Virus record (IMG/VR): IMGVR_UViG_3300023174_004998
Span: 1 to 64,000 of that record
Direction: 5' to 3' (one strand)
From: a virus
DNA length: 64,000 nt
Below are positions 12,142-64,000 of the stretch, in pieces. The stretch's first letter is position 1. Each line of letters starts with the position of its first letter. The position numbers and the translations under genes are program-made. Under the pieces are notes generated by a model. That model searched no databases and had not been told where the DNA came from. It saw only the letters and a list, made by a program, of their open reading frames with translations.

Positions 12142-12430
12142 TGAGTTGATCGGCAAACTTGATCAGGAACCAACTCTGAGCCGATTCCGTATAAAAATCC
12201 AACACAGTGTACTCTTGATAGAATCCATAGGCCTGTCCGTTTTCTCGACGACCAGTTTCTACCCACTCTTTGTGATAGCGTTGAGTGAATCCCAACACCT
12301 TTTTCATTTTTGATCTGATCAAGAGTACACTGGGCTCGTCCTTGTACTCCTGTGTAAGCACCAGCATGATGTCTTGCCACACACGATGTGGCATGGTGAT
12401 CATGTCGTTGGTTATTTTGTGAGGTCGCAT
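12128..12430 (-). CDS. Small protein, divergent member of the same family
   Basis: C-terminal LDFYTESAQSWFLIKF. Confidence 0.55.
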   Translation of the reverse strand: MRPHKITNDMITMPHRVWQDIMLVLTQEYKDEPSVLLIRSKMKKVLGFTQRYHKEWVETGRRENGQAYGFYQEYTVLDFYTESAQSWFLIKFADQLNDKD

Positions 12431-47828: not shown

Positions 47829-48509
47829 TCATGCCCATGCCACCATTTTGAATCTTTCTTGGGGTATGCCAAAGTAATTGCATTTCCAATCACTCTGTGC
47901 AAAGAAATCCAAATGATGCCATTGGTCTTTGTGCTTCAGTATATCTCGACCGGCCTGTTGCCAATTGATACTGTTTATTTTTTGTTCCATCTTTTGTCGA
48001 ACTGCATCCACTTCTACAAAATCAAAACCGTCGTATTCCCAATGTAGAACTTCAAACGCATTGCCTTCACGATCCACCCAGTCTATAGAAAAGTCTAGTC
48101 CCCATTTTGGCCTTAACTGTATGAGCTTGTGGCACAAGGGCATTTGCTCACTCCACTGTAGAAGTTGTTCTCGCGCCCGATCGGCATATCCCTTGCGTTC
48201 AAATAGATAGCTGTGATTCAACACAGCACCTTCTATGCGATGGCCTTGTTCAAACCAAGGTGTCTTGATAGCATGCCGATGTTCTCTATGATTGAAGAAT
48301 TTGGTTTTATTGCAGTTGGCAAATCTCTTTTCCAACGGACAAAGATCAAATCCATTTTGATCAAACAGTGCAAAGTCTTCGACCAATGGCACAAACAGCA
48401 TAGAGTCAGTGGCTGAATGCCAATACCCATCTGGGTCAAACTTATTGTTGGTCAGGCGTAGCATTTCTTGGTGTAGGATACCTAGTGGCACTGGGTCGGG
48501 TGGGATCAT
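47829..48509 (-). CDS. Hypothetical protein
   Basis: FDQNGFDL, ERKGY, PKWGLDFSID. Confidence 0.6.
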   Translation of the reverse strand: MIPPDPVPLGILHQEMLRLTNNKFDPDGYWHSATDSMLFVPLVEDFALFDQNGFDLCPLEKRFANCNKTKFFNHREHRHAIKTPWFEQGHRIEGAVLNHSYLFERKGYADRAREQLLQWSEQMPLCHKLIQLRPKWGLDFSIDWVDREGNAFEVLHWEYDGFDFVEVDAVRQKMEQKINSINWQQAGRDILKHKDQWHHLDFFAQSDWKCNYFGIPQERFKMVAWA

Positions 48510-48975
48510 GCTGATAGTTGCAGGCAGGATTGAGCCAGGCAGTGAGTCGGTCTTCTATGGCCTTGAGTTCTTGTTTCAACTGTGCCTGATTACCGTGTTG
48601 TGCCACAGTGGTTATGGGATAGAAACGTAGTTGTACATCTTTTAAATCATTGATACCATACCCAGCCGCGGCAAATCGATCGGCAAACTGTTTCCAGTTG
48701 TGCATCTGTGCAGCCGAAGTACATTGATCCAATAACTTCTGGATGTGTTTGTGCCAACGTGCTGTGAAGTTGTCAGCGGCGGCAATGCCCACATAGAAGT
48801 AGCCCCAGTCAGGATGTTTCCAAACATAGATGCCCGACTTCTTTGTTTCTGCTGGACGGTCATTGCGCAGACGTATGGTCAAGCCAGGACGGCCTTCTCG
48901 CTGTTTGACCAAGGAATAGATATCGTAGAAATTGTAGGTAACACTACGACCCAATTGTATTTCGTTCAATCTCAT
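48442..48975 (-). CDS. GIY-YIG-like nuclease domain with short MRLNEI leader
   Basis: SGIYVW..FYVG..R..H...E..L...NP.CN. Confidence 0.55.
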   Translation of the reverse strand: MRLNEIQLGRSVTYNFYDIYSLVKQREGRPGLTIRLRNDRPAETKKSGIYVWKHPDWGYFYVGIAAADNFTARWHKHIQKLLDQCTSAAQMHNWKQFADRFAAAGYGINDLKDVQLRFYPITTVAQHGNQAQLKQELKAIEDRLTAWLNPACNYQHDPTRPSATRYPTPRNATPDQQ

Positions 48976-49043
48976 ACTGGTGAGTAAGGGTTGCGATGAC
49001 GATCATAACCATCGTCTTCTGGATACACTGGATATTCGTTCAT
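48972..49043 (-). CDS. 23 aa peptide MNEYPVYPEDDGYDRHRNPYSPV, not in ORF track
   Basis: AGGA SD; fills the gap exactly with an ATGA overlap. Confidence 0.5.
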   Translation of the reverse strand: MNEYPVYPEDDGYDRHRNPYSPV

Positions 49044-49044
49044 G

Positions 49045-49677
49045 TTATCTTCCTGCATTGCGTATGGCTGCACCGTTGTTGAAACTCTGGCTCCAGGAGT
49101 TAGCAGTACGATTACCTTTGCGAGCACTCCACTCGTAGCCTGCACGATGCCCTGAACAGTCTTTGGTGCATTGACTGCCTTTGAACATCAGCTCGTTTAG
49201 CTGTTCTTCTGTAAGACTTTCATCTAGTTCGTCATCCCCAAACTCCATGTGGTCATATGGGCCCCAGGGTTTGCCTGTACGACTATCTAGTTCACCTGAT
49301 TCGTCACCGTGTTCATAGTAGTCATCGCTGTAGATTTCCACACCATCGAATGTGCCATTGTAGCCAATGTTAAACCTGCGTGTGACACCGTCAGGACAAA
49401 CAATGCCACGTTGTAACAATCGTTCTATGTCTTCTTGACTCTTGATACCTTTTTGCAAGTTGCCAGTATCATACACACCGTTGTACCAAGCTGATGCTAG
49501 AGTTCTAAAATAGTCTCCAGAATCACTGCCGCCTCCGGGTGCAAACTCATTTAAGTCTTCGTTCTTCTTGCGACCTTGGCAATGAGCACGTTGGCTGAAA
49601 CCTTTGGGGTTAGAGCAATCTATAGAGCGTTTGTATTTCCGGCTCCATTTTTCTGAGATGAATTCTTCAGCTCTCAT
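49045..49677 (-). CDS. Putative internal head protein, three modules (MRAEEFISE leader)
   Basis: CTS-like leader; modules separated by LNE sites. Confidence 0.65.
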   Translation of the reverse strand: MRAEEFISEKWSRKYKRSIDCSNPKGFSQRAHCQGRKKNEDLNEFAPGGGSDSGDYFRTLASAWYNGVYDTGNLQKGIKSQEDIERLLQRGIVCPDGVTRRFNIGYNGTFDGVEIYSDDYYEHGDESGELDSRTGKPWGPYDHMEFGDDELDESLTEEQLNELMFKGSQCTKDCSGHRAGYEWSARKGNRTANSWSQSFNNGAAIRNAGR

Positions 49678-50081
49678 TTGGTCACCGGTCCACCTTCGAC
49701 CCAAGCATCGCAGGTGCGCTTGGCTGCACACTTAAATTTTAGAAACTTGCAATATCCTAGATCGCCAGCATCTATGGTGTCATGTGGATCTGACCCTGGT
49801 TCACTGCCAATGCCCCTGGCTATACAATCCAGCATGTCAGGACTCATATCAAAGGCCGCACAGTTGCCACAGCGGTTGTTCTTTACTGATTCAATATCGT
49901 TGGTGTTCCAACGGTCGGCCAGTTCAGCCCAGTATTCTTCATTGGGCTCGTTGGGATTTAGCGGACCATAGTGATATTCATCTATGGCCTTTTGACGATT
50001 CTTGAGATTGAGATCAATGCTCTGCGTGGCTGGTGGACAGCCTTTTTCTAGAGCTTCTAACAAGTTGATATAGTTTCTCAT
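49674..50081 (-). CDS. Putative internal protein, Cys-rich (MRNYINLLE leader)
   Basis: CGNC..GYC..C....CDAW, HiPIP-like Cys spacing. Confidence 0.6.
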   Translation of the reverse strand: MRNYINLLEALEKGCPPATQSIDLNLKNRQKAIDEYHYGPLNPNEPNEEYWAELADRWNTNDIESVKNNRCGNCAAFDMSPDMLDCIARGIGSEPGSDPHDTIDAGDLGYCKFLKFKCAAKRTCDAWVEGGPVTK

Positions 50082-50686
50082 TTTGTTGATTTAGCTTCAG
50101 CACGGTCTTGTGCTTTGAGAGGTAAACTTACAGGGTATTGATAACAAGCTTCTGGGTTACCCTGACCAGCTTCGGTCAAGAATGATGTAGCTGCCGGAAC
50201 TTGTCCCGATGGGCATGAACACACAGCAATGCCATCAGCACCTTTGACACAGTTCCAACTGAAACAGTTGCTGGACTTGGCGCCAAGATTCAAACTGGCA
50301 TCACACTTTTGTACAGTGGCTTTTTGTTTCCATGGTAATGAACTAAAGTTGCTGGCTTCTTGTGGGTAAAACAGTTTGGGAGCAAACAAACTCCAAACAT
50401 TTTTATCACTAGTAGGCGCACATGAACCTTTCATATTGCCAGCTGAGGTATCAGCAATAGCATGGCCTTTGAGTATGGGGCAACGGCATTCTACTTCAGG
50501 ATATGGCACACCATTGTTGCCAGTGATCATTTTTGGTGTTCCATCTTTGTTCATGACTGGTTTGCAAGTGCTGGCGGCACACAGCGCATATTCGCCATCA
50601 CAGAGTGTAATACCAGCAGTGGGCAATTGAGCCAACACAGGGGTTGACAGCATTATGAATGCTACTATTGCTAATAATTGTTTCAT
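50078..50686 (-). CDS. Secreted Cys-rich protein
   Basis: Sec signal peptide; about 12 Cys. Confidence 0.65.
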   Translation of the reverse strand: MKQLLAIVAFIMLSTPVLAQLPTAGITLCDGEYALCAASTCKPVMNKDGTPKMITGNNGVPYPEVECRCPILKGHAIADTSAGNMKGSCAPTSDKNVWSLFAPKLFYPQEASNFSSLPWKQKATVQKCDASLNLGAKSSNCFSWNCVKGADGIAVCSCPSGQVPAATSFLTEAGQGNPEACYQYPVSLPLKAQDRAEAKSTK

Positions 50687-50699
50687 TGTTTTCCTTTGA

Positions 50700-50801
50700 T
50701 TAAGTTTTTAATAACTGCTTGAGTTTGTCCAACGCGGCATTGAAGTTCTCTGCTATTATTGTAAATGCTTGTCCTTCTACAGTAAAGTTATATGTTCTCA
50801 T
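50700..50801 (-). CDS. 33 aa peptide MRTYNFTVEGQAFTIIAENFNAALDKLKQLLKT, not in ORF track
   Basis: AAGGAG SD; fills the gap. Confidence 0.5.
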   Translation of the reverse strand: MRTYNFTVEGQAFTIIAENFNAALDKLKQLLKT

Positions 50802-50802
50802 T

Positions 50803-51333
50803 TCATGCTCCTTTGTTTTTGATCCAGTCATCTGGAGTCTTGTTGTGCTTGGCTACAAAACGATCATGTAGCTGTTTGGCAGTTATTTTTGATTTTTTAG
50901 CGATGGACTGCATCATGTGATCAATGGCATCGTAACTGGTGGGATTTTTTAAAACCTTTTCTAAATCCTTGACCTCGTCTTCACGCACCCGGGTAGCTAC
51001 GTTCTTAGCTGGGCCTCGGCGTTCGGGATTGGGATCTTCTCTACGCTTCTTGGCCGCGGCTGATGCACGTTTCTTTTTGCCCAGTGCATAGGCCTTGGAT
51101 CTTGGCAAACACTTGGGTTTACCTTCCGAATCATCGCCACGGGCACAGTCGCCACGAATCTTGCCATCGGGCCCAAAGCGTACCCATTTTTCCTTGAACC
51201 ACTTCTTGAGATCCTCTTCCATTTGCTGTTCGCTCACAGGCACACAGTTAGGCACCATGCGGTCACCTTTTTTCTTCATGCCTGCTTGACGATATCCAGT
51301 CCAGCAAGCTTCGAGGATTTCTTGATATCTCAT
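50803..51333 (-). CDS. Putative internal protein, three basic modules (MRYQEILE leader)
   Basis: ACWTGY..VPNCVP; DLKKWFKEKW..KPKCLP; YDAIDHMM..TPDDWIK. Confidence 0.65.
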   Translation of the reverse strand: MRYQEILEACWTGYRQAGMKKKGDRMVPNCVPVSEQQMEEDLKKWFKEKWVRFGPDGKIRGDCARGDDSEGKPKCLPRSKAYALGKKKRASAAAKKRREDPNPERRGPAKNVATRVREDEVKDLEKVLKNPTSYDAIDHMMQSIAKKSKITAKQLHDRFVAKHNKTPDDWIKNKGA

Positions 51334-54300
51334 TTTTTCTTACCGCCATTGCCCCAGTTGTCAGCACCTTTTTTACGACACTGTACTAAAGCACCTGAAG
51401 CATAGGCACTGGGCCAAACTTTGTAACGTGATTTAACTTTATTGTAGCAAGCGTCTTGTTTTTCATCCAACTGGTCTTCGCCCAGTTCTATGTCACGACG
51501 ATCTTTGGCTCTTTTCTTAGCATAGTCGGTTTGTGGATTCTTTGGTTGACGTGCAACTGGTTTGCCGGCATCTACATCACGTTCACGAGCACGACGCTTT
51601 TGATAATCAGTTTGACCTTCCGCCACACCTTGCTGACTCAGTGCTTGACGTGCTTGTTTCAAGCGCACCAAGGCAGTGCTTTCACCTAACATTGAATCTT
51701 CGTCTTCACGATACACGGCCTTCTTCATGGCCAAGAACTTTTGCAGTGCTGCCAAGTCTTTGGTGTATTTGTCTTTGAGATCTTGGAATTGACGATCTGT
51801 TTCTGGCACAGGATACAGTTCTTCCATTTCAATATCTGCTTGCAGGCCAGGGTAGATACCGCCACGCACATTCTGTGCCTTTAAGAACAGCTTGTCGATC
51901 TGTTCTTTCATCTGGATTAACTCATCCAACAATGCTATGTGACGTCTAAGACTTAGAAATTCTTCATGACGTTGAGTACGTTGAGCATTTGATGGACGAC
52001 CACGACGTGGTCCAGCAGGTGTATTGAGATCAACTGCGGCCGGCGCTGGCTGTGCAGGTTGTTGTAGACTGCGCAACACTGACATGGCCTTGTCATTGAG
52101 TGCTTCTTTGATGTAGCCTTGCTTGATACCAACTTTGAGCAAATCGCCAATACGTTGTTGTATCGCGGCCTTGGCTTCTGGATCACTCATCAGCGCGATG
52201 TCTTTTTGTAGTTCACGCATCACACGCATTTTTTCTGCCCAGTCGCTCACAGTCGTGATGGCATTGTATCCTGAACGATTTAAATCTTCAGTTTCACGTA
52301 TCTTGATACCTTGGCTTTGTGCGCGGCCTTCTAACTCAGCAATCTTCAAACGGATGGCTTCTTTCTCACCAGGAGAAGCATTGGCCATCTGACGGAATAG
52401 TCGATCACGTGCATTTAAAAACTCTTCACGTTGTTTATTGCTACCGCCTGGTGTGGGTTGTGCAATGTTGAACTTGTCCATGCGTTGATTTTCACGTGCG
52501 ATACCAGTCCAGTTAATAGTACCTGTGGGCCAGCGTACACCAATTTCCATGGAAGGATATTTCTTCTTTAGAGCTTGTGCATGAGCAAAGGCTTTGTTGG
52601 AACTGTGGTGCTGTTTGAGATCACTGACAATACCATCCTTGCGACGTACCACACGGAAGTCGCCCACTGGTTCTTCTTCCCCAGCTGATTGTTCTCTGCG
52701 TTTGAAATTTTGTGAAGCCTGCTGACCCGCTTTCCATTGCTGTTCAATGTCTAGGTCTTTGAAACGACCTTCTTCAACATAGTCTTCCTCATCAGCATAG
52801 TCATTGTATTTGACATTGGAAGCATGAAACGCATGTTTACCAAAATTGTAGAGATCCACTATGACAAAGTGCTTGTCACGGCCAAAGCCTGAGACATCAC
52901 CAGTCTTGCCAGCATGCTCTACGTTGCCACCAATGATCACAGGATCACCAATGTGTAATTCTTCATTGCTTTCGTTCATACCAACTGCTTTGCCAAAATC
53001 TCCCATGTCTACTCCTTGCAGTGCGGCTGCCATTGGGTCCACTGCGGCATCTGATTTTTTCTTTCGAGCACGACTGATAGGAATCACTTTTCCATCATCC
53101 TTGGGTATTTCCACATACGGTGGTGCCTGTATCACAGTTGGTTCAGCGATTTTCTTGGGAGCGGTTTTCTTGGGAGCGGCTTTCTTACGAACTGCTGGTT
53201 TCTTTTTCTTCTCAGGAGCAGGCTGTGCCACGTCTGTTGGTTGTTGCTGTGGTTGAGTAGCAACTTCTGGTTCTGCGGGTTTCTCTGCGGCCTTTGGTTG
53301 TGTTGCTTGCGGTTCTTCAGGTTTCACAGCAGGCTTGGCCGGAACTTCAGGAGCAGTTTTGGCTACCACTGGTTCTGGTTGTTGTTTGAGTTGTTGTATT
53401 TCTTGATCTTGTTGTTGCACCACAGCGGCCAACTGTTGCATCTGTTGATCTTGAGAATCGTTGTCTTTGCGTAGTTGATCAATTTCAGCTTGTGCGGCCT
53501 GCGATTTTTCTAATTCGTCCTGTACAAAGGCTTCAATGTCACTGCCGGCCGCACTTTGACGAGCACGGGCCAGCTGGAAAGCTCTGGCCACTCGGGGATT
53601 TACCATGCTCTTACGATCTAATTCTGTTATTTCAGAATTTTTTTTTTGAGCTTCAGCTTCTTTGATTTTGGGAGTGCCCATGCCAGGCAGATCCATCTGG
53701 CCTGGAGGAACAGGTTCTGTGCCTGGTGCAACATAGGCAGGAACTTTCTTAGGCATCATACCTTTGGCACGCAATTTGTCAATGTAGTCAACCATGGCCA
53801 ACTTGTCACCAAATGTATTAAGAATGATGTTGACTTTTTGCTGTGGCTTCATACGGCCAAAGTCTTTTAATATAGCATAGATCTGCGAACGATAAAGAGT
53901 AAGAGGGCGATCGCCAGCAAATTCGAATTCACTGTAGGGCTTGTTTTCCATGTAGTCTTTGATCATGCGTTCCCAATTGATCTTGCCTGCTGTTTGTGTA
54001 GTAGGACGATCTGGATTGGCCATGGCGATCTCTTCTACAGCTTGATCTTCTTCCATCTGTCCGGGCATGGTATCACCTGTGACACCACGTTCGCCAGGAA
54101 TACTACCTTGGAAATTCTTTTGTTTGTCAATGAGTTGACGCAGTTGTTTCATGTGCTGATCAAACTTCACAGGATCTGCAAGATGATTCAAGAACTCTTC
54201 CTGACGACCTGCTTTGTTAAATGCTTTGTACTTGGCAAATATCCAACGTGTTTCCATTGGATCTAGAGTGATTGTTTCACCGCCAATGTTGAGTACAGCA

Positions 54301-54386
54301 TCCTGTCCTGATTGGGAGGCCTGCATCAAGGCTCGTAAATTATCGTAGCCTGTGGTAGTATCTTCGATCAAGTTCAGTAAATTCAT
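51330..54386 (-). CDS. Large modular putative internal polyprotein, 1018 aa (MNLLNLIE leader)
   Basis: Modules bounded by MEE/IKE/MNE/VEE/IRE/LGE/VAE/LDE; KOW-like module; C-terminal KQDACY..WPSAYASG. Confidence 0.7.
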   Translation of the reverse strand: MNLLNLIEDTTTGYDNLRALMQASQSGQDAVLNIGGETITLDPMETRWIFAKYKAFNKAGRQEEFLNHLADPVKFDQHMKQLRQLIDKQKNFQGSIPGERGVTGDTMPGQMEEDQAVEEIAMANPDRPTTQTAGKINWERMIKDYMENKPYSEFEFAGDRPLTLYRSQIYAILKDFGRMKPQQKVNIILNTFGDKLAMVDYIDKLRAKGMMPKKVPAYVAPGTEPVPPGQMDLPGMGTPKIKEAEAQKKNSEITELDRKSMVNPRVARAFQLARARQSAAGSDIEAFVQDELEKSQAAQAEIDQLRKDNDSQDQQMQQLAAVVQQQDQEIQQLKQQPEPVVAKTAPEVPAKPAVKPEEPQATQPKAAEKPAEPEVATQPQQQPTDVAQPAPEKKKKPAVRKKAAPKKTAPKKIAEPTVIQAPPYVEIPKDDGKVIPISRARKKKSDAAVDPMAAALQGVDMGDFGKAVGMNESNEELHIGDPVIIGGNVEHAGKTGDVSGFGRDKHFVIVDLYNFGKHAFHASNVKYNDYADEEDYVEEGRFKDLDIEQQWKAGQQASQNFKRREQSAGEEEPVGDFRVVRRKDGIVSDLKQHHSSNKAFAHAQALKKKYPSMEIGVRWPTGTINWTGIARENQRMDKFNIAQPTPGGSNKQREEFLNARDRLFRQMANASPGEKEAIRLKIAELEGRAQSQGIKIRETEDLNRSGYNAITTVSDWAEKMRVMRELQKDIALMSDPEAKAAIQQRIGDLLKVGIKQGYIKEALNDKAMSVLRSLQQPAQPAPAAVDLNTPAGPRRGRPSNAQRTQRHEEFLSLRRHIALLDELIQMKEQIDKLFLKAQNVRGGIYPGLQADIEMEELYPVPETDRQFQDLKDKYTKDLAALQKFLAMKKAVYREDEDSMLGESTALVRLKQARQALSQQGVAEGQTDYQKRRARERDVDAGKPVARQPKNPQTDYAKKRAKDRRDIELGEDQLDEKQDACYNKVKSRYKVWPSAYASGALVQCRKKGADNWGNGGKKK

Positions 54387-55204
54387 TATTGTTCTTCCAA
54401 GTAATCTTCGTTTTGTGTTGTACGCATACGACGTCTGTTGAGATACATCTCACAGGCCATCACAGCATGATCCAGGCTTTCAAACTTTGCTGAATGCGGT
54501 TTATTCTTTATGGTAATACGGAAACCATCATCTTCGTTTCCGTGTATCTTGATTTCTTTACCATCATCAGTGACGATGGTTTTCACAGCAGAAGTGATCT
54601 TGTCAATGTCCTGCGGTACTTTGTCTTTGAGATCAGAGTCTGATTTGATTTCTTTTGATAGATCAGATAGATAGTCGCCCAGTTTCTTTTTTACAGTGGA
54701 GATGACATCCTCAGTGGCCTTGGCTTCCGACAAACTTGAACCGGCCAGTATTTGTTCAACACTGCGCACATAGGCTGATACATCACTGCTGCCAATTTCG
54801 TCTACATCGCCCACAAACTCAGCAACATCACGTGCGGCATCCATCACTGCCTGTGGACCATAACGGCCCAACAAACTGGTGTGTTGCATCATGATACGAT
54901 GCAAGATAGCACGTTCTACTGGGTTGTCATTATCTTCGCTTTCCAAAAATGATTTGGTATCTGGATCCACACCATCAGGAGTCTCATCTGCTCCAGTGTC
55001 ACCTACTTCGCTACCCCAACCTGTTTCGTCCCCTTCGCCAACCAAATAACCTTGTGTGGCGTTCTTGCCAGGATATGGGCCTGACAACTGTGGTGACGTG
55101 TTACGAGGCTTAAACAACGCAGGTAATTGCTTGACGCTTTTTTGTGCGGCGTCAATGCTTTCTATGCGATTGAACGATTCAAGTATCTTGCGTAGGTCTG
55201 CCAT
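54386..55204 (-). CDS. Putative internal protein (MADLRKILE leader)
   Basis: Modules after LVGE, FLE, LSE. Confidence 0.6.
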   Translation of the reverse strand: MADLRKILESFNRIESIDAAQKSVKQLPALFKPRNTSPQLSGPYPGKNATQGYLVGEGDETGWGSEVGDTGADETPDGVDPDTKSFLESEDNDNPVERAILHRIMMQHTSLLGRYGPQAVMDAARDVAEFVGDVDEIGSSDVSAYVRSVEQILAGSSLSEAKATEDVISTVKKKLGDYLSDLSKEIKSDSDLKDKVPQDIDKITSAVKTIVTDDGKEIKIHGNEDDGFRITIKNKPHSAKFESLDHAVMACEMYLNRRRMRTTQNEDYLEEQ

Positions 55205-55206
55205 GA

Positions 55207-55647
55207 TTATGCTCTTGCGTCTTTTAAGAAACTCTTGAGTTGCCATGCATACTTGCCATGACTGTCTTGACGTTCTGCCATGAAGTTGGCAATGTCCTCA
55301 CGTCCTTCGGCCTGTGCGACTTGAAATACTTGCATCACAATGCTCTTCATTGTTTCTGTATCTGCCAATAATTCTTCTAACATTAGTCGAGCACGTGGAA
55401 TCTTTGTCTGTCCAGGAATTTGACTGAGTTCATTGAAACGCTCTAGGCTGCCTGGTGCATAGTCTTCCAAGGTGCGAATGTACTCAGCAATCTTGTCTAC
55501 AGCACCATATGCATCTGCATAGATTTCAGCAAAAAATTCGTGCAATTGAGCAAAGTCTGGACCTTCCACATTCCAGTGGAACATCTGTGCTTTTAAGTAA
55601 TAAGCAAAATTACTGGCTAATAGAGTTTTCAAATCGTCTGACAGCAT
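55207..55647 (-). CDS. dps: Dps-family ferritin-like protein
   Basis: HWNVEG..F..LHEFF, VD.IAE.IR, H.K..WQL. Confidence 0.9.
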   Translation of the reverse strand: MLSDDLKTLLASNFAYYLKAQMFHWNVEGPDFAQLHEFFAEIYADAYGAVDKIAEYIRTLEDYAPGSLERFNELSQIPGQTKIPRARLMLEELLADTETMKSIVMQVFQVAQAEGREDIANFMAERQDSHGKYAWQLKSFLKDARA

Positions 55648-55792
55648 TGGGTTTCTTCTTTCTAGAATTCTTTTTATATTTATCCGCAGGCACTATAGGC
55701 TGGGTTCTTGACAACACAGCACCCATGGGCATGGCAACAGTGGCTATGCCGCCGCTAACCGTGGTTTCTGCTATAAATTCATGCGCTCTCAT
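55610..55792 (-). CDS. Small putative internal protein (MRAHEFIAE leader)
   Basis: Last five leader residues (EFIAE) match T4 IPII/IPIII MKTYQEFIAE. Confidence 0.6.
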   Translation of the reverse strand: MRAHEFIAETTVSGGIATVAMPMGAVLSRTQPIVPADKYKKNSRKKKPNAVRRFENSISQ

Positions 55793-56078
55793 TGACGATC
55801 TCAAAGGTTTTTGAGTCAATGACTTGTGCAGGGCCATTGGATACTTTTAAGTTGCGTATTTTAAATTGACAGTCTGGATCGCCAAGATTATCTACTCTTA
55901 TAGTGTATTTTCCTGGTGGCGCATCTAGAGATATATTTTCTTCAAGATACTGTGTACCGCCCCAGATATAGGTACGCTCTGTGAATAGCTCATGATTCAC
56001 ATATAATCGATAAACTGGGGGCACCTTTTTCCAATCACAAAAAAGGTCTAGGTTTACTTTTACAAAATGTTTACGCAT
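55779..56078 (-). CDS. Hypothetical beta-rich protein (start MRKHF)
   Basis: TAAATA 5 nt upstream. Confidence 0.6.
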   Translation of the reverse strand: MRKHFVKVNLDLFCDWKKVPPVYRLYVNHELFTERTYIWGGTQYLEENISLDAPPGKYTIRVDNLGDPDCQFKIRNLKVSNGPAQVIDSKTFEIVNESA

Positions 56079-56106
56079 ACAGATATTTACCGCATGCGTA
56101 ATTGTG

Positions 56107-56847
56107 TCATTTATGAAAGTTGTCGTACCAGCTGGCTTGCCTACTGAGTTGTATACCACGTTGGCGTTCAGCTTTGTTGCCTGATTTTTTCATTTTGTTG
56201 GCTTTGGCTCGCAGGCGCTTTAGATCTGTTTGACTTAACTTTTCTCCAGAACCCTTGCCCAAATAGGCAGCGGCTTTGCGTTTGATGCTACCTGGGCGGC
56301 TACCGGGCTTGGCAGCTCCGGTAAAATCTTCCACGGTATTGAGATAGGATACAAGTGTTTCGTTCATGCCAGACTCCTGAAAAATAGGACCTTGAACAGT
56401 GTTACCACGCTGTCCAACAATGACTTGATTAAGGTGTTGTGCCCATTCTGGATTTGCATCAAAATGGCGTCGACGTAGTCCCAAAGGAAATAAATGTACT
56501 TCCACAGGATCGTCACCTTCGCTTTGCAGTATGGCCATCATTCTATGGCGGCCATCATGCCCAACTACTCTAGCTGGTTTAGATAAATTGTTTGATTCCC
56601 AGCCCTCGGGTATGTCTATTTCCAAGAACGGTGCGCCAATGCCTTCTGTATCTTTGTGTTGTTTGACATATTCTACAGCTTCTTGATCTTGTGGAGTATT
56701 GGGCATGGGCAATGCCAACTTTAAGAAAGTACTGGGACGCATGGCTACTCGCAGTCCAAAGTAGTCAATTTCTTGATTCTTGGGAACACTACCAATGCCT
56801 GATTGGTTGTTGATCTTGTATTCGTCAATAAACTCGTGGGATCTCAT
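56107..56847 (-). CDS. Putative internal protein: ParB/Srx-like domain plus basic module (MRSHEFIDE leader)
   Basis: VVGHDGRHR motif. Confidence 0.65.
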   Translation of the reverse strand: MRSHEFIDEYKINNQSGIGSVPKNQEIDYFGLRVAMRPSTFLKLALPMPNTPQDQEAVEYVKQHKDTEGIGAPFLEIDIPEGWESNNLSKPARVVGHDGRHRMMAILQSEGDDPVEVHLFPLGLRRRHFDANPEWAQHLNQVIVGQRGNTVQGPIFQESGMNETLVSYLNTVEDFTGAAKPGSRPGSIKRKAAAYLGKGSGEKLSQTDLKRLRAKANKMKKSGNKAERQRGIQLSRQASWYDNFHK

Positions 56848-57164
56848 TAGCGCACCCGTAACACAGGATTGCGCCCGTGGTAGTTTTCGTTGTGATACAC
56901 AGTATTCAACAACAGCTTGTTGGGATCAAAGGCCGACCTCATCATGCCAAGATGTATGTTGTGGTGACTGTCAAAAACATTGAACTGTGTGTTAGGTTCC
57001 AACTCTTTGATGTGTCTGCGAGCACGATCTAATCTGTTGAGTATGCCTACGATTATGGGCATAGAGATTCCACGCTTTTCAGCACGATTGTCCAAGTGCG
57101 GACTCACACGTATGCGGAATCCACCTGCGTTGAGATCTTCAGTGACAAATTCTTGAGCTTTCAA
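56847..57164 (-). CDS. Putative internal protein, possible RNase-toxin-like fold (MKAQEFVTE leader)
   Basis: SPH..RA..RGI..LNTVY; TTG start. Confidence 0.55.
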   Translation of the reverse strand: MKAQEFVTEDLNAGGFRIRVSPHLDNRAEKRGISMPIIVGILNRLDRARRHIKELEPNTQFNVFDSHHNIHLGMMRSAFDPNKLLLNTVYHNENYHGRNPVLRVR

Positions 57165-57343
57165 CGCACTCTCCTGATGGCACCAATGTGATGATCTTCT
57201 ATACCATACTGTGCTTTCAATAACTGGCGTGCTTCTGCTTGATTGTGAGCATACACTGACACTTCAATCCTACCTGTGTAGTTGGGATTGCTGATGGTAA
57301 TTTTAGCCAACCAACGGTGTCCTGTGAGTTCTTTTGCTCGCAT
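57161..57343 (-). CDS. Small protein with MRAKEL leader
   Basis: TAAGTA 7 nt upstream. Confidence 0.55.
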   Translation of the reverse strand: MRAKELTGHRWLAKITISNPNYTGRIEVSVYAHNQAEARQLLKAQYGIEDHHIGAIRRVR

Positions 57344-57356
57344 AATGTATTACTTA

Positions 57357-58247
57357 TTAGTTTGTCTCAAAGTTCTTTTGAACGCGATATGTTTCGTCCG
57401 GGAACTTGGCCAAGTAAGCGTCAATCATGTGATCGAAACTACTGCCAAATCTGGCTTTCAAACTTTTCAAGCTCACTGCCTGATCTTTTTCGTTCATGAA
57501 CTGACCTGTTTGTTCGTTGTTGATGATATAGTCTTCACCACGATCGTGATATATTTCCAAATAATCACTGTCATTGTACACAGGCAGATCGCCAATGCTG
57601 TAGTCAAACCACAGCTGATACTTTTCACCTGGATGTTGAGGTTGTTGCGGTACAACTATCAGCAGGGGTGTGTTTTCAGCATAGTTGTTGAAATAGTTCT
57701 TGCCTTTGGTTGCCGCTGTACACCAGCGTGTGCCTTGCCCATAGTAACAGGCCGCGGCTTGATCGTAGGGCATGATCACTCGAACTTGCTGATCCTGATA
57801 TATTTCTTCAGCCTGTCCTTTGTCTTTTAACTCAGGTGCTTCGGGATCTGGATATTCATCCATCACACTCATGAAGTCACCAAAGTTACTGTAGCCCAAG
57901 ATATCATTTCTGGGTGCTGGTATTTTTTTTCTGCGAGTTAATACATAGAACTTTTCCAAATATTCACGCACCTGTGTGAGTACATCTTCAAGAAATGTTT
58001 CACCTTTGATGTAGGTACGAGCCAACCAAGGCATGTACTGTTTGTTGGGTGAAGGGTCTGCCAGTTCCAACATGCGGATCAAAGCTTCTATAGTATCATC
58101 GTCGCTGTCTTGTGGGCCAAGATCACGACCCAGTACTCTGCGTATGCGGCCCGGCCCTTCTCTACGGAATGTGTTCAGCACTTGAGTTCCCAGGCGTTGC
58201 TTGGTTATGTCACGGCTGTATTCTAATAGGAATTCCTGGGCTCTCAT
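57357..58247 (-). CDS. Putative internal protein, PcfJ-like (MRAQEFLLE leader)
   Basis: ADP..NKQY..WL; AACYYG.GTRWCTA..F..Y. Confidence 0.6.
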   Translation of the reverse strand: MRAQEFLLEYSRDITKQRLGTQVLNTFRREGPGRIRRVLGRDLGPQDSDDDTIEALIRMLELADPSPNKQYMPWLARTYIKGETFLEDVLTQVREYLEKFYVLTRRKKIPAPRNDILGYSNFGDFMSVMDEYPDPEAPELKDKGQAEEIYQDQQVRVIMPYDQAAACYYGQGTRWCTAATKGKNYFNNYAENTPLLIVVPQQPQHPGEKYQLWFDYSIGDLPVYNDSDYLEIYHDRGEDYIINNEQTGQFMNEKDQAVSLKSLKARFGSSFDHMIDAYLAKFPDETYRVQKNFETN

Positions 58248-58444
58248 TTCTTTCGCCCCGATTTCATATTGGCACACCAATGGTACATCTTGGCACGTTC
58301 GCCAGAAGCATTTTTAGCACGTCGACGTAGATCAGTTACACTGCCCGAGCAACTGGCACCTGCACGTTTTACACGGCCTGGGCGACTTTTTCCTTTGACC
58401 CGACCGTCGGCAAAGTTTTCCGTTACAAATTCATGTGCTCTCAT
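58244..58444 (-). CDS. Small basic putative internal protein (MRAHEFVTE leader)
   Basis: CTS-like leader plus K/R-rich module. Confidence 0.65.
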   Translation of the reverse strand: MRAHEFVTENFADGRVKGKSRPGRVKRAGASCSGSVTDLRRRAKNASGERAKMYHWCANMKSGRKK

Positions 58445-59217
58445 AAACTAAAAGGATCCATTATAACTAAATGACCATCGCTTCTACGGCGCAGGTTTTC
58501 TATGTTGCTCAAATCTAACGGTGCATGACCGCCCAAGGCGTCAATGAGATCTTCAGTGGCCATGAGCAACCCTTGGACTTCGTCGTCATCCAACTCAGGA
58601 GGCATTGGGTTATTCTGTTGATAAGCATCAGCATATCCACGTGCCGCCGCGTTCATCAAATCTTCAAGGTATTCCAATGTGGCTTCTTCATTGGCCACAT
58701 AGTCCAGATATTCCATTTCATACACAAAATAAGTTTCACCGTTGAGAGAGAATTCACCTGTGTTGTAGATACGAGGATAGTAGGGATTGCGCTGATTGCG
58801 TAGGAAAAACGCTACATAATCTCGAACAATCTTTTCACGTTCAGGATCACCAATGCCCAGCACTTTGACCACTGTGTTCCTAGGACTGACAAATGCCATC
58901 TGATCGCGGCCTTCGCCAGCAAACTGATACCCACGTTTGAAAAAGTAGTCTTCAATGTGTTGGCTGACTGTGAGTTCGTCATCAGCGTTGATTTCTGTAA
59001 GTCCTTTTTTCTTGGCAAAGTCAATTTGACGCAACATGGCATTGATGTCTACTGGATCACGCCCACGTACTTTTAAATCTGTTTCTAAGTCCTGTGGTGA
59101 TGGATCATCTTTTCTCAGCATGCCTGGGTGGCGAGCAAGACTGGGCCTTTTAGTAGTAGGCGGCACAATGGGGGTGACAGGAGTTATGACTTCAGTTACA
59201 AACTCTTGGGCTCTCAT
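58441..59217 (-). CDS. Putative internal protein with protein-kinase-like domain (MRAQEFVTE leader)
   Basis: GEGRDQMAF, VVKV, P.IY, MEYL, DL...EN, LVIMDP. Confidence 0.6.
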   Translation of the reverse strand: MRAQEFVTEVITPVTPIVPPTTKRPSLARHPGMLRKDDPSPQDLETDLKVRGRDPVDINAMLRQIDFAKKKGLTEINADDELTVSQHIEDYFFKRGYQFAGEGRDQMAFVSPRNTVVKVLGIGDPEREKIVRDYVAFFLRNQRNPYYPRIYNTGEFSLNGETYFVYEMEYLDYVANEEATLEYLEDLMNAAARGYADAYQQNNPMPPELDDDEVQGLLMATEDLIDALGGHAPLDLSNIENLRRRSDGHLVIMDPFSL

Positions 59218-59807
59218 GATCCCATCCACCGTGCTATCATTGTGGTGCGAGCACTTGAATACACACCAGTGCCACGTCGAGTGCTACGCATGCTTCGGCT
59301 ACCAGGTTCTACAGGAAATGTAAAACGAGTCCAAGTTTTGTTTTGATCTACTACGTTGTCTCCAGGCCGTGGACGATATTCTGGAGTGCGTTCCATGGTA
59401 TAGCCTTTGACTTCTACTCCTGGTATGGAGTTTAACATAAGCCACATGGCTTGTCCGTGCTTGGTTTGTGTGTCTCCAGCTTCCAATGTAAGTTTGAGTA
59501 TGTTGAGAGCAATACCATACAGAGCCTTGCCCAATCCTCGACCACGATAGTCAGGATCTGTGGCCACAGTTTCCACTTGCCAGGTTTTCAATGGATCAAG
59601 AGTTGCGCCAAGATCCAGTTCCGCAACCAGGGTGTCACCGTCAAAGATCATGATTTCCATAAATTCAGGATCTTTTTTGTTTACAGCATAGGTATAGCCA
59701 CTGCCGCCTGGCAAAGGTTTTTTCTTTATTTTATAGTCAGGTTGTCTCAATGTGTCTTTGTCACCAAAGTCACCTTGTGGTATGCGGGCTATTTCGTAAA
59801 ATCTCAT
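59214..59807 (-). CDS. GNAT acetyltransferase (MRFYEI leader)
   Basis: V..DPDYRGRGLGKALY, QT..G..MW. Confidence 0.75.
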   Translation of the reverse strand: MRFYEIARIPQGDFGDKDTLRQPDYKIKKKPLPGGSGYTYAVNKKDPEFMEIMIFDGDTLVAELDLGATLDPLKTWQVETVATDPDYRGRGLGKALYGIALNILKLTLEAGDTQTKHGQAMWLMLNSIPGVEVKGYTMERTPEYRPRPGDNVVDQNKTWTRFTFPVEPGSRSMRSTRRGTGVYSSARTTMIARWMGS

Positions 59808-62800
59808 ATCATCACCGGTAATACATCCAAGGCACCAGAGTAGTTGTTTTCTCTGGCCCACATTGATGCTATCCTGTTGGCATCACCTTGATTGTTGCCC
59901 GCTCCACTGAATCTATACAGTTCACGGCCAGCACCATCTACAACTTGCCACTGCCCAGAAAATTGATTACCAAATGGTGCACCACTGGATTGAGGGAAGT
60001 TTTGTGCAACATCTGGTTCAATGTCTTGCACATGGCGTCGAAGCTCTGCAGACCAATCACCTATTCCTCCTGCAGGTTGCGGTTCACCTATTCTAGCTTT
60101 TAAATCTCGAGAGTCTTGAGCATTGTCTGCGGCTCGCTTGACATCCTGTGGTTGAATTTCTAAATCGTCAGCATTCTCAAAGTCGTGAAGTACAGCCACT
60201 CGGGCTAATAGTTTTTGTGCTTGATCTTGATCAACACGCAGTATACTATCAATCACACGACCTGTGGGTTTGTAAACAACATCCCAATTGCTTTTTTGTT
60301 TGGGTTCTTTGATGCGCTTGGCCATTTGAGCGCGAGCACTTAACTTTTTCTCTGGCTCAGGAGTGTTGTCGGGTCTGCGATATACCTCGTAATCGTCAGA
60401 AAGTCGATCTCCGTATTCGGCCTGGACCTTTTCTTTGGCACGATCAATGTCACCAGCTCTAACAGTCAGTATGATGTCACCGTAGCTATCCATGACATCA
60501 AACCAAGGTTGTTTTAACCGCACATCCAACTGACGTGGGTCGTTGCTGTATTTTCTGGTATATTGATCGTATGCAGTATCGTAGTCACGAGCATAAAATG
60601 TATCAATGATTCCATCAGGACTATTTTTATTAGCCATGTCGTAGACTTCGTATTCTTGTTTGCCAGTGGTAGGTATTTCTTTTTGTAGTACAGTATCAGC
60701 CCACTGTTTCTTGAGTTGTTCTTTGTCAATGGTACCTGCTGAGTATTCAGAAAACAGTTTCAGTGCGTCATTCTGCGCACCTGGTGATATTAACTTGTAG
60801 AGTTTTTTAGCATACTCTCGGCGCTCAAGATCTGGACGGCTGGCAATGTACATGGCACGAGCAAAACGCAACATGGTATCTTTGATATCGTCCCATTCGC
60901 CACGACTCTCCATGGAGAGATAATCGCCACCCGGTGATCGGAATTCAATATAGCCATCCTGTATGTGCGCCGATGTGTATTTGCTAGTACCCACACCTTG
61001 CTGAACATAACGAGCAGCCAACTCAATGAGATTCTTCTGTACTAACTCCAATGCGCCCATTGGATCTGTTTTGGCTTCTGTGAGGTCGCCACGATTTCTA
61101 GCACCCTGTATGTTTTGTTTGAGTTTGCCCATGGCCGAAGCCGCATAGGTATTCGAAGCACGACCAAACTTGTCCAGTATGTACTCGTCACCCATGAACA
61201 GCACTAATTTAACATAGTCAACATCTCCGCCCACATAGGGTATAGATATGCCCATGTGCAGGCCTGTGCTGGAGTTGGTGTAGGCATCAGCTTCGTTTTG
61301 TGCCCACTCTATTACGTCTTTGAGCTTGTCAATGGTTTCCAACAATGGCATAGGTGGACTAACAATTTCCAGCCCCATGTCGTCGCCGTCATCAGGATCT
61401 AAACTACCGTCGGGTTCAATGATCCAGCGACCTTCTTTGCGTGTGGTTGAGTGATAGTTTCCGCTGACTTTGACTTCCATGCCCACCGCTTGTTGAAGAC
61501 TATCGCCAATTTCACTCCAGTCACGGTCTCCACCTCCGGATCCACCTCCGGTCCAGTAAGGCCAGTCAAGAGTATTTGAGTTGGCAATATCGCTCATGTA
61601 ACCATAGCGATCGCGCAAGAAATCACGCTCATCGTAGTCACCTGAGTCTCGCATCATTTCAAAATAGTATTCGCGAGCATTGTCATAGTATTCGCCTTGG
61701 CTCTCTACTTCACTAATGACTTCAGTTTCAAAATCTTCATGTGCGGCATCTGAGGCTTCTTGATACTTTTGATACAATTCGTTTTGTTTGGCATAAGCTG
61801 TTTGATCACTGCTTCTTGTAAATCTTGGTGCATCCTCGCCAGCTTGTAATATTGCTTGTGAATCATCGTCGGGAAACAGTTCATCTATTTTGTCAGCAAT
61901 GCGTTTTTCACGTTCTTCGTCATCACTCCAGACATTGGTTTCCATGTAGTCTCGGACTTGATCTTCAGCGTTTTCGCTCCAAGACTCTGCAATTTGTTCA
62001 TCTGCCCATTCAACAAATTCTTCAAAAAGTGTGTCGCGCAGATCTCGAGCACCGCGACCACTTAGACCATAACCCCAGTCATCGTTGGAAAAGAAGTCTA
62101 TGACATGATCAATATCGTCTGCACGTTCATCATAGTCATAGTCCGGCTCCATATCACCTTCGTCATCGTCACGCTTGGTATCACGGAAGATCAATTCAGC
62201 TTCAAAGCCAGCACGTATGCCTTGTGCTTCAGGACTACGAGCCCAGGCTTCCAAGGTGCCGGTGTTCATCCTTACTTCGTTTATGGGTTCAAATTCGCCA
62301 GACTCTTTGAATTCTTTCAGGGCATTGGCCAAGTTCTTCATCAACAAGTCAGGACGACCTTGACTGTCTGTTTGCAAGCCTAATTTATTGGCTTCCTTGC
62401 CCAACTGTCCAGGTTTGATGTCCACTGTGAGTGCTGTTTTAAATCTTGGATCTCGGGCCTGTTTCTTTGTGGGAATATAACCTGATGCATTTTCACGCAC
62501 AGGTGCAGGACCTTGTATCACAACCACAGCACGGAACTGACCACCTAGGTCATCGGCTTCATGTTCTACAGGGCGCCATTCGCCTATGGAAATAGGACCA
62601 TATCTTCGGTTAGCGTCTGCGTAAGCGGCGTTGAGTGCGGCTTGATAAGCGTCTTCACGTGTACGTCCAATGCCGTTGGCTGCCACACGTTCACCTTGTG
62701 CTTGTGGTCCACCCCAGATGCGTTTTCCACCCACACGTATTTCTTGATTGCCACGTGCTAGATCTCTTGCTATGCCTTTTAATTCTTCTTCGGCTCCTGC

Positions 62801-64000
62801 CTTGGTAAAGGTCTTGGGAGCATTGTATATCACACGCCCTAGATCATACGCAGGGCTCTGTGCTTTGGCAGCAGGCGATCCCAGGGCCATGGCTCCAGCC
62901 ACAGCGGCAGTGCCCAGAGCTTTGCCTAGGCCTTCGTCTAGATCATCCAATCTCCGTTGCCATTCTATTTCTTCTGGTGTACGAGGATCTTTCCAGTCGG
63001 GATTTTTTGTCAAATCCTGTAGTTCATAGGTATTAGCGCCCATTGGAACCAAGCCCAGGTACTGATGACTGTTGGGGGCCAAAAACGTTTGATCACTGCG
63101 CCAGCCACCTTGTTCCATGCCTTTGGCAGTTTTATACCAGGGTCGCCAACTATACTTAAACCTGACCAGGTTGCGTCCATCAATAATCTGTTGAGAAACA
63201 ACCTGTCTGAGCACTGCCTGTGTGCGGTATTGAGTATTTTGCTCTCTATCAGCCCAGGGATACCATACAATCTTGGCCTTTTTCTTCAACAAGGCACGTA
63301 TCTGATCCCCCAAGGGATTGTGCAAGTCTGCTTCAGTGCGTTTTCTGGGATGCCAGCTATCATCGTCGTCTTCGTCCTCCCAACGATCGCCATCATTTTT
63401 TGGTGGCTTGATCGGAGGTGATATTGATCCACCGCCTGGAGCAAATTCGGACAAGTTCTGTTGACGATACATCTGATACATTTTTACATAGTCTTGTTCT
63501 TGTCGAGTCAACGGACGACCTAATTTGACCTTAGCAATTATGAATCGATAGTATTGTTCAGCATCGCGATCTTTACTGACAGGAGTGGCAATAGTCTCAC
63601 CCACGTTGTAGGTAGGATCAGTCTTTTGTCGTGGCATACCTGCGGGCTGGTTGGGATCCACAGGGTCAATGTCTGTAGTATCAAGTCCTAATCTTTTTAA
63701 ATGGTCGATATACTTGTGTTCGGTATTTTCATCACCAAAACTTACAATGGTACTAGGTGGCCCTTTACCAAACTCGCTGGGGTCAACTTGATCTAGATTG
63801 GCAATGTGTTTGCCAAGTTTATACCAGTCGTACACATCTGAAACATCCACACGCACTGTGCCTCGGGGCATGGTGGGTTTGAATTCTGGGCCAGGCGGAG
63901 TCTGATCACCATATTGTGCGGCCACGCTGTCACCATCTTCGCTCACAGTGCTGGCAAAGAACTCAGGATATTTGTTTTGAAAATGGCGCATGATAATACC
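59804..64000 (-). CDS. Very large polyvalent protein (5' end outside window) containing a putative amidoligase (COOH-NH2 ligase) domain
   Basis: GFEAEL, IEPDGSL, GLEIVSP, TNSSTGLHM.IS, YIEFRSPGG; modules bounded by LSE/LDE/VRE/INE; frame open to the window edge. Confidence 0.75.
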   Translation of the reverse strand, partial: GIIMRHFQNKYPEFFASTVSEDGDSVAAQYGDQTPPGPEFKPTMPRGTVRVDVSDVYDWYKLGKHIANLDQVDPSEFGKGPPSTIVSFGDENTEHKYIDHLKRLGLDTTDIDPVDPNQPAGMPRQKTDPTYNVGETIATPVSKDRDAEQYYRFIIAKVKLGRPLTRQEQDYVKMYQMYRQQNLSEFAPGGGSISPPIKPPKNDGDRWEDEDDDDSWHPRKRTEADLHNPLGDQIRALLKKKAKIVWYPWADREQNTQYRTQAVLRQVVSQQIIDGRNLVRFKYSWRPWYKTAKGMEQGGWRSDQTFLAPNSHQYLGLVPMGANTYELQDLTKNPDWKDPRTPEEIEWQRRLDDLDEGLGKALGTAAVAGAMALGSPAAKAQSPAYDLGRVIYNAPKTFTKAGAEEELKGIARDLARGNQEIRVGGKRIWGGPQAQGERVAANGIGRTREDAYQAALNAAYADANRRYGPISIGEWRPVEHEADDLGGQFRAVVVIQGPAPVRENASGYIPTKKQARDPRFKTALTVDIKPGQLGKEANKLGLQTDSQGRPDLLMKNLANALKEFKESGEFEPINEVRMNTGTLEAWARSPEAQGIRAGFEAELIFRDTKRDDDEGDMEPDYDYDERADDIDHVIDFFSNDDWGYGLSGRGARDLRDTLFEEFVEWADEQIAESWSENAEDQVRDYMETNVWSDDEEREKRIADKIDELFPDDDSQAILQAGEDAPRFTRSSDQTAYAKQNELYQKYQEASDAAHEDFETEVISEVESQGEYYDNAREYYFEMMRDSGDYDERDFLRDRYGYMSDIANSNTLDWPYWTGGGSGGGDRDWSEIGDSLQQAVGMEVKVSGNYHSTTRKEGRWIIEPDGSLDPDDGDDMGLEIVSPPMPLLETIDKLKDVIEWAQNEADAYTNSSTGLHMGISIPYVGGDVDYVKLVLFMGDEYILDKFGRASNTYAASAMGKLKQNIQGARNRGDLTEAKTDPMGALELVQKNLIELAARYVQQGVGTSKYTSAHIQDGYIEFRSPGGDYLSMESRGEWDDIKDTMLRFARAMYIASRPDLERREYAKKLYKLISPGAQNDALKLFSEYSAGTIDKEQLKKQWADTVLQKEIPTTGKQEYEVYDMANKNSPDGIIDTFYARDYDTAYDQYTRKYSNDPRQLDVRLKQPWFDVMDSYGDIILTVRAGDIDRAKEKVQAEYGDRLSDDYEVYRRPDNTPEPEKKLSARAQMAKRIKEPKQKSNWDVVYKPTGRVIDSILRVDQDQAQKLLARVAVLHDFENADDLEIQPQDVKRAADNAQDSRDLKARIGEPQPAGGIGDWSAELRRHVQDIEPDVAQNFPQSSGAPFGNQFSGQWQVVDGAGRELYRFSGAGNNQGDANRIASMWARENNYSGALDVLPVMI

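Follow-up and report, generated by a model that had tools for sequence, protein, structure and literature searches.

A leader peptide resembling the T4 capsid-targeting sequence on a changeable gene array of an uncultured jumbo phage

A shared leader peptide on an array of unrelated genes

The window studied here covers the first 64,000 nucleotides of a viral contig of 96,550 bp from IMG/VR (IMGVR_UViG_3300023174_004998; CheckV completeness 26%). It contains most of an array of 19 minus-strand genes, located directly upstream of the DNA polymerase gene in the direction of transcription, in which otherwise unrelated proteins start with the same short leader peptide. By analogy with phage T4, the array probably encodes a changeable set of enzymes that is packed into the phage head, an enlarged form of the T4 trick. 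The reading that we favor, with a probability of roughly 0.65, is that of a hyperplastic cargo locus whose leader is of the T4 type, targets proteins to the capsid, and is cleaved off by a protease, with an extension to enzyme cargo and to jointed polyproteins. The concept of a targeting leader has been known in T-even phages since the 1990s; the enzymes and the jointed polyproteins are its likely extension here.

The array runs from contig position 65200 down to 48442, and its genes were labeled S, R, Q and so on to A. The original prediction had described a ~15 kb array of tagged effector genes between 48442 and 64000. The array is in fact longer, as the first open reading frame (ORF; S, 1798 amino acids, aa) exceeds the window and ends at contig position 65200; most of the genes are indeed tagged, but four are without leader. 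Gene A closes the array, and two untagged genes lie between A and the family-B DNA polymerase gene (44670–47330). Nearly all genes of the contig are on the minus strand. The polymerase shares 50% identity with its counterpart in Sinorhizobium phage Phosso and 42–47% with those of Atu_ph07 and of the Rak2-like phages CBB, GAP32, and 121Q (jumbo phages, T4 superfamily); judged from these sequences, the source is an uncultured jumbo phage of the T4 superfamily. A polymerase search of IMG/VR matched at least 599 contigs, indicating an abundant environmental lineage, and 80 contigs with polymerases at least 80% identical were kept as relatives. The closest complete relative, referred to as G006, has a genome of 364 kb and a polymerase 81% identical to that of the contig.

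Seven array genes start with a strict form of the leader, M-[R/K]-[A/S]-x-E-F-[I/V/L]-x-E (49677, 55792, 56847, 57164, 58247, 58444, and 59217, minus strand). These are the seven unrelated ORFs with a common start peptide that had been predicted, the one at 57164 beginning with TTG. Pairwise BLASTP comparison among the 19 array proteins gave no match at E ≤ 0.01, and the array ORFs are therefore mutually unrelated. Looser or shorter N-termini ending in hydrophobic-x-Glu were present on four to eight further array genes, and all seven such forms in the original prediction were located: the looser MRYQEILE (51333), MRNYINLLE (50081), MNLLNLIE (54386), and MADLRKILE (55204), and the shorter MRAKEL (57343), MRFYEI (59807), and MRLNEI (48975).

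The leader is far from chance level. A search of the 96.5 kb contig for its DNA form gave six matches, each of them within the array, while a reversed control pattern gave no match in the same 96.5 kb. From residue frequencies, only ~0.003 such N-termini were expected per 135 genes. When the criterion was relaxed to an [ILV]xE whose Glu is residue 8–10 of the protein, it was found in 11 of the 19 array genes vs. 6 of 100 other minus-strand genes (the count includes gene J, which is absent from the gene-caller output).

Beyond the contig, a degenerate DNA pattern of the leader matched at least 119 IMG/VR contigs, compared to an estimate of ~1 by chance. The matched loci and the polymerase relatives together yielded 227 non-redundant tagged ORFs, the mature parts of which formed 38 clusters. 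The leader is thus carried by at least 38 cargo clusters, as would be expected of the portable leader originally proposed. Ala3 was present in 203 and Phe6 in 215 of the 227 ORFs, and position 7 (P3 of the putative cleavage site) was I, V, or L in 220, whereas the search pattern itself required M1, E5, and E9. Tagged genes were mostly arranged in tandem, with up to seven per locus among the matches listed. Other genes were shared with G006 by 113 of the 119 tagged loci listed, which indicates that the tag belongs to a single lineage of jumbo phages. None of the papers in the library searched contained the leader strings in this sense; the ten matches to MRAREF and MRAYEF were unrelated.

At most array starts, the start codon and the stop codon of the gene before it overlap (ATGA, TTGA, or TAATG). 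The DNA upstream of the leaders is therefore coding sequence of unrelated genes, and translation of the genes is coupled. This arrangement raises the question of whether the shared start is a feature of the nucleic acid, i.e., a translation coupling element or a patch of homology used in recombination, with a peptide that has no function. The locus is highly recombinogenic, and for most tagged genes, which begin in ATGA or TAATG overlaps, no ribosome-binding site was obvious. In addition, Arg2 was skewed to AGA (69 of 78 instances), which is attributable to the ATGA overlaps, and Ile7 showed some codon bias. However, across 84 independent metagenomic instances that had not been chosen by DNA pattern, codon use at A3, E5, F6, and E9 equaled genome usage (p = 0.32, 0.55, 0.26, and 0.47, respectively). 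The third codon positions of the leader varied freely. Overlaps or short gaps of the same kind are found at untagged genes (C-to-D, D, E, I), which lack the motif, and hydrophobic-x-Glu is also present at joints within proteins, a long way from a start codon (see below). A nucleic-acid feature is therefore highly improbable. It is the amino acids and not the DNA that are conserved, as had been claimed from the synonymous codon variation within the array, and selection acts on the leader peptide.

Relation to the T4 targeting sequence and the prohead protease

In the T4 record (NC_000866), ipII and ipIII start with MKTYQEFIAE and ipI with MKTFKEF...TITE; other substrates of the gp21 protease start with MLKEQLIAE (gp22), MAKINELLRE (gp24), and MEGLIE (gp67). 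The predicted likeness to the T4 capsid-targeting sequence was borne out, as the core EF[IVL]xE is common to the array leader and to the targeting sequence of IPII and IPIII, where it reads EFIAE. The cleavage rule of gp21, a hydrophobic residue at P3 and Glu at P1, also applies to the end of the array leader. As in the array, the T4 internal proteins (IPI, IPII, IPIII, and Alt) combine a short N-terminal leader with unrelated proteins. The internal proteins of T-even phages form a diverse set with only the targeting sequence in common (Rao and Black, PMC3012670, citing Repoila 1994; see also Mullaney and Black 1996), and the content of their loci differs between related phages, as it does in the lineage studied here. 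The T4 ip genes sit among non-structural genes, on the early strand and outside the head cluster; the position of the array beside the polymerase gene is therefore no objection to a role in the head.

The array differs from the T4 internal proteins in scale and architecture. T4 has three internal proteins, whereas seven strictly and up to eight loosely tagged genes are found here, with enzyme domains, ORFs of 1018 and 1798 aa, and modules strung in polyprotein-like chains whose joints repeat the motif. The phage itself also differs from T4, being a jumbo phage of ~350 kb with a polymerase ~40–50% identical to those of cultured relatives.

A cognate protease is encoded in the lineage. One gene for a gp21-type protease (PF03420, Peptidase_S77) was present in each of the five tagged relatives with a completeness of 90% or more, and also in two of the four less complete tagged relatives tested. 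In G006, the order of the head genes is portal, a 72-aa protein, a 293-aa acidic protein, protease, scaffold, and major capsid protein, which matches the order of T4 genes 20-67-68-21-22-23. The 293-aa acidic core protein starts with MNKFEQLIE, and the gp21 homologue is encoded at 262533–263171 of G006.

Because the leader motif is homologous to the IPII/IPIII targeting sequence MKTYQEFIAE, a mechanism in three steps can be proposed. The leader would target the tagged proteins to the scaffolding core inside the prohead. The gp21-type (S77) prohead protease would then cut after the last Glu of the leader and also at the hydrophobic-x-Glu joints of the long proteins, which would free a kinase-like domain, GNAT and GIY-YIG proteins, a ParB-motif protein, an amidoligase chain, and small basic modules within the head, together with the DNA. 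The freed proteins would probably be ejected into the host along with the DNA.

Phages of the phiKZ type have a cleavage motif with a small residue (Ser, Ala, or Gly at P3)-x-Glu, which is cut by a protease of a different family, and to our knowledge no short shared N-terminal nonapeptide has been described for them. Here P3 was L, I, or V at 108 of 108 joints preceding the kinase-like module and I, V, or L in the leader, and the lineage has a T4-type S77 protease and the T4 gene order. In the phiKZ-like giants (phiKZ, 201phi2-1, and SPN3US), many proteins, including enzymes, are loaded into the head and later ejected into the host, and the prohead protease cleaves them behind Glu residues, in some cases more than once per protein (PMC5694885, PMC7411985, PMC10052503). 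The array system thus appears to work similarly to the phiKZ-like ejection proteins but, by its motif and its protease, is not a member of that group.

Module joints and polyprotein architecture

The hydrophobic-x-Glu motif recurred at internal module joints, which points to a polyprotein architecture that an earlier reading of the array had overlooked. An example is gene Q (58441..59217), in which the strict leader MRAQEFVTE is followed by a disordered linker and, from residue 76 after LTE, by a minimal protein-kinase-like domain. The C-terminal domain of Q had 332 relatives. Some of these consist of the leader and the domain only (192 aa), and others carry GNAT, ParB-motif, HAD-like, or unknown modules between the two. 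In all 108 relatives in which the domain start could be placed, the kinase-like module was preceded by [LIV]xE, either as the end of the leader itself or as a joint 60–240 residues inside the protein. AlphaFold modeled the domain of Q with confidence but left leader, linker, and joint disordered, which fits proteins that are cut at their joints. Other tagged families showed the same tendency: [LIVFM]xE preceded 24 of 47 internal joints, defined as positions matching the first post-leader residue in a homologue, vs. a background of 1.4%, and several of the other joints kept the Glu. Recurrent joints (a slash follows the Glu) included GV[AE]E/, LNE/FAPGGG (in B and S), and xxE/NFADG. The last of these belongs to P (58244..58444), in which the strict leader MRAHEFVTE is followed by a 57-residue basic NFADG module that recurs within longer proteins behind [ILV]xE joints.

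The conservation of the joints argues for cleavage and not for packaging as such. Leader and joints could accordingly be no more than processing sites of precursors or polyproteins, at which the prohead protease, or a different one, acts in the cytoplasm in order to activate or separate the modules, with neither packaging nor injection. The array lies beside replication genes and not head genes, and GNAT, kinase-like, amidoligase, and GIY-YIG proteins could all work after normal expression. We nevertheless consider this explanation unlikely. The N-terminal half of the leader, M-R-A-x-E-F, is conserved far beyond what P3 and P1 would need and matches the T4 sequence. In T4 assembly, proteases of the gp21 family are activated inside assembled proheads, and their substrates are therefore prohead-resident. 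Furthermore, one family of the array has a homologue in virions. Gene O (57357..58247; 296 aa), with the strict leader MRAQEFLLE, is a member of a large viral family in which the strict leader was kept in 101 of 120 members, down to 40% identity. O is homologous to EST35_0205 of Pseudomonas phage PA5oct (sequence E 1e-13, predicted fold E 2e-9), which is annotated as 'structural protein, ESI-MS/MS' and was detected in virions by mass spectrometry (PMC7318152). The two differ in size and setting, EST35_0205 having 482 aa and being encoded in a structural region adjoining the terminase gene, compared to the 296 aa of O and its place in the cargo array.

Alternatively, the nonapeptide could be a tag that is recognized by a partner outside the capsid, such as a radical-SAM maturase, a chaperone, or a degradation or localization system, and its likeness to T4 would be convergent. 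The lineage has many SPASM-type radical-SAM-like genes, two of them at 2.4–5 kb from the tagged gene pair of G006. However, a radical-SAM-like gene occurred within ~5 kb in only 20 of the 119 tagged loci listed, and none in or beside the array; a maturase tag was rejected on this weak linkage. The tag also ends exactly in a protease motif that recurs at internal joints, which a tag serving recognition only would not predict, and the lineage has the cognate protease. This explanation is thus quite improbable. Radical-SAM-like paralogues were noted at 12412–13578 (−) of the window, at 74749–75858 (−) of the contig, and at 212862–215694 of G006, a label that was read from their Cys-rich N-termini with no family search behind it.

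Some modules started right after the junction Glu with a stretch resembling a twin-arginine (Tat) signal, of the form RRxFL-hydrophobic-AQA, as in MRAVEFIAE/IDRRGFLGALGAGAMAAAGVPAQA and ...QIAE/ITRRDFLRGAGAMAGTAAIGQPVQAQ (locus L002, 2991 (+); protein P0067). A similar hydrophobic stretch, LDE/GLGKALGTAAVAGAMALGSPAAKAQ, was seen in the S ORF (window 61700–61790, about residues 754–785). A Tat-like signal that is exposed only after cleavage would be unusual.

Turnover of the array between relatives

Relatives with polymerases 98, 93, and 89% identical to that of the contig carried different subsets of the array, in line with the cargo turnover between related phages that the original prediction would entail. 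At 81% polymerase identity, only H, I, and K stayed near the polymerase gene. H-I-K (54386–55204, 55207–55647, and 55779–56159, respectively) is thus the conserved core of a changing locus. The loose leaders of C, F, G, and H were kept in orthologues, and the hydrophobic-x-Glu of H was kept down to 26% identity.

The commonest tagged family was found outside the window. It comprises proteins of ~125 aa (81 of the 227 tagged ORFs) encoded in tandem pairs or triplets (e.g., loci L017, L043, and L099), with no PHROG, no relative among cultured phages, and no member in the window. In G006, a pair of this family (locus L219, 18097–18854; G006 218097–218854) lies in the structural module, adjoining a phrog_1645 virion protein.

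Identity of the cargo proteins

The labels originally given to the cargo fared unequally: kinase-like is backed by fold and residues and GNAT and GIY-YIG by Pfam, whereas ParB-like and PcfJ-like are less secure. For the domain of Q, Foldseek returned PknB and APH(2'') at E ~1e-4 with probability 1.0, at TM scores of only 0.25–0.36. K118, D235, N241, and D254 were invariant in 32 homologues. The model and these residues support a minimal protein-kinase-like fold for Q, with the catalytic Lys, the Asp...Asn loop, and the metal-binding Asp in place. Gene R (59214..59807; 197 aa), which has the short leader MRFYE/I and an ATGA overlap with the stop codon of S, encodes a GNAT acetyltransferase (PF00583, 26.7 bits vs. 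a cut-off of 20.7); in some relatives, R-type GNAT modules are joined to the Q domain (P0012). Gene A (48442..48975; 177 aa; short leader MRLNE/I) encodes a GIY-YIG domain protein that was borderline in Pfam (PF01541, 23.1 bits vs. 22.6).

The first gene, S (59804..64000, continuing to contig 65200), is a multi-module ORF with the N-terminus MDIYE/L, an Amidoligase_2 domain, and an internal NLSE/FAPGGG joint that is also found in B. Gene L (56107..56847; 246 aa) starts with the strict leader MRSHEFIDE, contains a GHDGRHR motif of the ParB/Srx type, and has a basic module at its C-terminus. As evidence for its ParB-like label consisted of the DGRHR motif and a weak Atlas lead (score 0.83), this label was not retained. 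For O there was no Pfam match, and in BFVD, PcfJ-like proteins were matched only at weak E-values of 0.06–0.5. The model of O was confident but had no fold match in the PDB (best Foldseek E ~1), and the best VIA-align score, Z 5.5 to GNAT-like alpha/beta folds, was within noise. Sequence searches of the PDB with L, Q, and O returned nothing below E 0.2.

Weighing of the packaging hypothesis

Several findings weigh against a T4-type packaging system. The T4 leader has ten residues (MKTYQEFIAE) and the array leader nine, with a fixed Ala3 and one residue fewer before EF, and the Arg or Lys at position 2 is partly forced by the ATGA overlaps. The strict leader was absent from the cultured relatives Phosso, Atu_ph07, CBB, PA5oct, and SCTP-2, and the virion protein EST35_0205 of PA5oct starts with MKLFEVFTLYE, which contains hydrophobic-x-Glu but is not the strict leader. 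Within the array, four genes are leaderless (I, Dps-like; D, with a signal peptide; K, 126 aa; and E, 43 aa). G006 has only two tagged genes, the ~125-aa pair in its structural module, so that a large array cannot be expected in every member of the lineage. The 96.5 kb contig, a fragment of ~26% of the genome, contained no protease, scaffold, or capsid gene, and we therefore infer the protease from the relatives. The T4-type late promoter TATAAATA occurred once in the window vs. 1.9 times expected. The [LIV]xE that precedes the modules could be part of the module's own fold and not a cleavage site. Finally, although the parts of the original prediction that can be tested on sequence stood, packaging into the head, cleavage of the leader behind its final Glu, injection, and roles in host takeover or anti-defense are drawn by analogy with T4.

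More tentatively, and at less than even odds, the whole lineage could be regarded as using a plug-in system. Any gene that gained MRAxEF[IVL]xE, or that was spliced behind a hydrophobic-x-Glu joint of a tagged polyprotein, would be loaded into the prohead, cut free by its protease, and delivered to the next host. Rapidly exchangeable, ready-made enzymes (kinase-like, acetyltransferase, nuclease-like, and amidoligase) would thereby act before phage gene expression, and the Tat-like modules might even be re-exported to the host periplasm after cleavage.

If the packaging hypothesis is correct, T4 targeting would be a general and evolvable delivery system of giant environmental phages, used for dozens of enzyme families and relying on the head protease for the cutting of modular polyproteins, and would not be confined to the three small internal proteins of T-even phages. 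The leader and the hydrophobic-x-Glu joints would together provide a sequence rule by which injected proteins could be predicted from metagenomes. Such proteins would be the first phage products to meet the host defenses, in phages for which there is no cultured model. The leader would also constitute a second, naturally diversified targeting peptide for the engineering of protein delivery by phage capsids.

Remaining array genes and additional observations

Three further short genes carry leaders. J (55610..55792) has the strict leader MRAHEFIAE on a basic protein of 60 aa, which belongs to a small-protein cluster of 13 members. M (56847..57164; 105 aa) has the strict leader (TTG)KAQEFVTE, with a TTGA start/stop overlap, and N (57161..57343; 60 aa) has the degenerate leader MRAKEL. 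K (55779..56159; 126 aa) has no leader and lies beside H and I in distant relatives too. I (55207..55647), the Dps/ferritin-like protein without leader, is conserved in relatives.

Gene B (49045..49677; 210 aa) combines the strict leader MRAEEFISE with a KWSxKYKRS Cys module, the LNE/FAPGGG joint, and further modules. Gene G (51330..54386; 1018 aa) is a multi-module ORF with the loose leader MNLLNLIE/D, a low-complexity middle part rich in Pro, Ala, and Lys, a QGVAE/G joint, and a C-terminal Cys module (phrog_727). F (50803..51333; 176 aa) also contains a phrog_727 module, behind the loose leader MRYQEILE/A that is kept in its orthologues. The small Cys/Lys-rich modules of F, of the C-terminus of G, and of B (ACWTGYRQAGMKKKG..VPNCVP; YNKVKSRYKVWPSAYASGALVQCRKKG; KWSRKYKRSIDCSNPKGFSQRAHC) matched the widespread phage families phrog_727 and phrog_3477.

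C (49674..50081; 135 aa), with the loose leader MRNYINLLE/A, is conserved in 13 relatives. D (50078–50686) encodes a Cys-rich protein of 202 aa that lacks the leader and has a classical signal peptide at its N-terminus (MKQLLAIVAFIMLSTPVLAQ); it was nearly without relatives in the polymerase-linked loci (1 of 80). E (50700–50831; 43 aa) is likewise leaderless. With respect to transcription signals, sigma-70 and terminator scans did not rise above shuffled sequences, and a T4-type late promoter was discarded as a candidate signal, given its count in the window.

Gene H (54386..55204; 272 aa) has the loose leader MADLRKILE/S. An in-frame upstream ATG at 55246 would give MATQEFLKRRKSIIM-ADLRKILE, the MATQEF(L) start of which is leader-like. 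Orthologues have a comparable peptide upstream, but a start at this site would place the beginning of H within the conserved 3' end of the Dps gene.

SCTP-2 (L125, MF360958, 1577–11400) encodes paralogues related to O that have a common start of their own, MK[IV]KHI..[LF]E. It reads MKVKHITQYLFES, MKVKHILFEN, VKITELFES, and MKIRHLYEN, and may be a lineage-specific counterpart of the leader.

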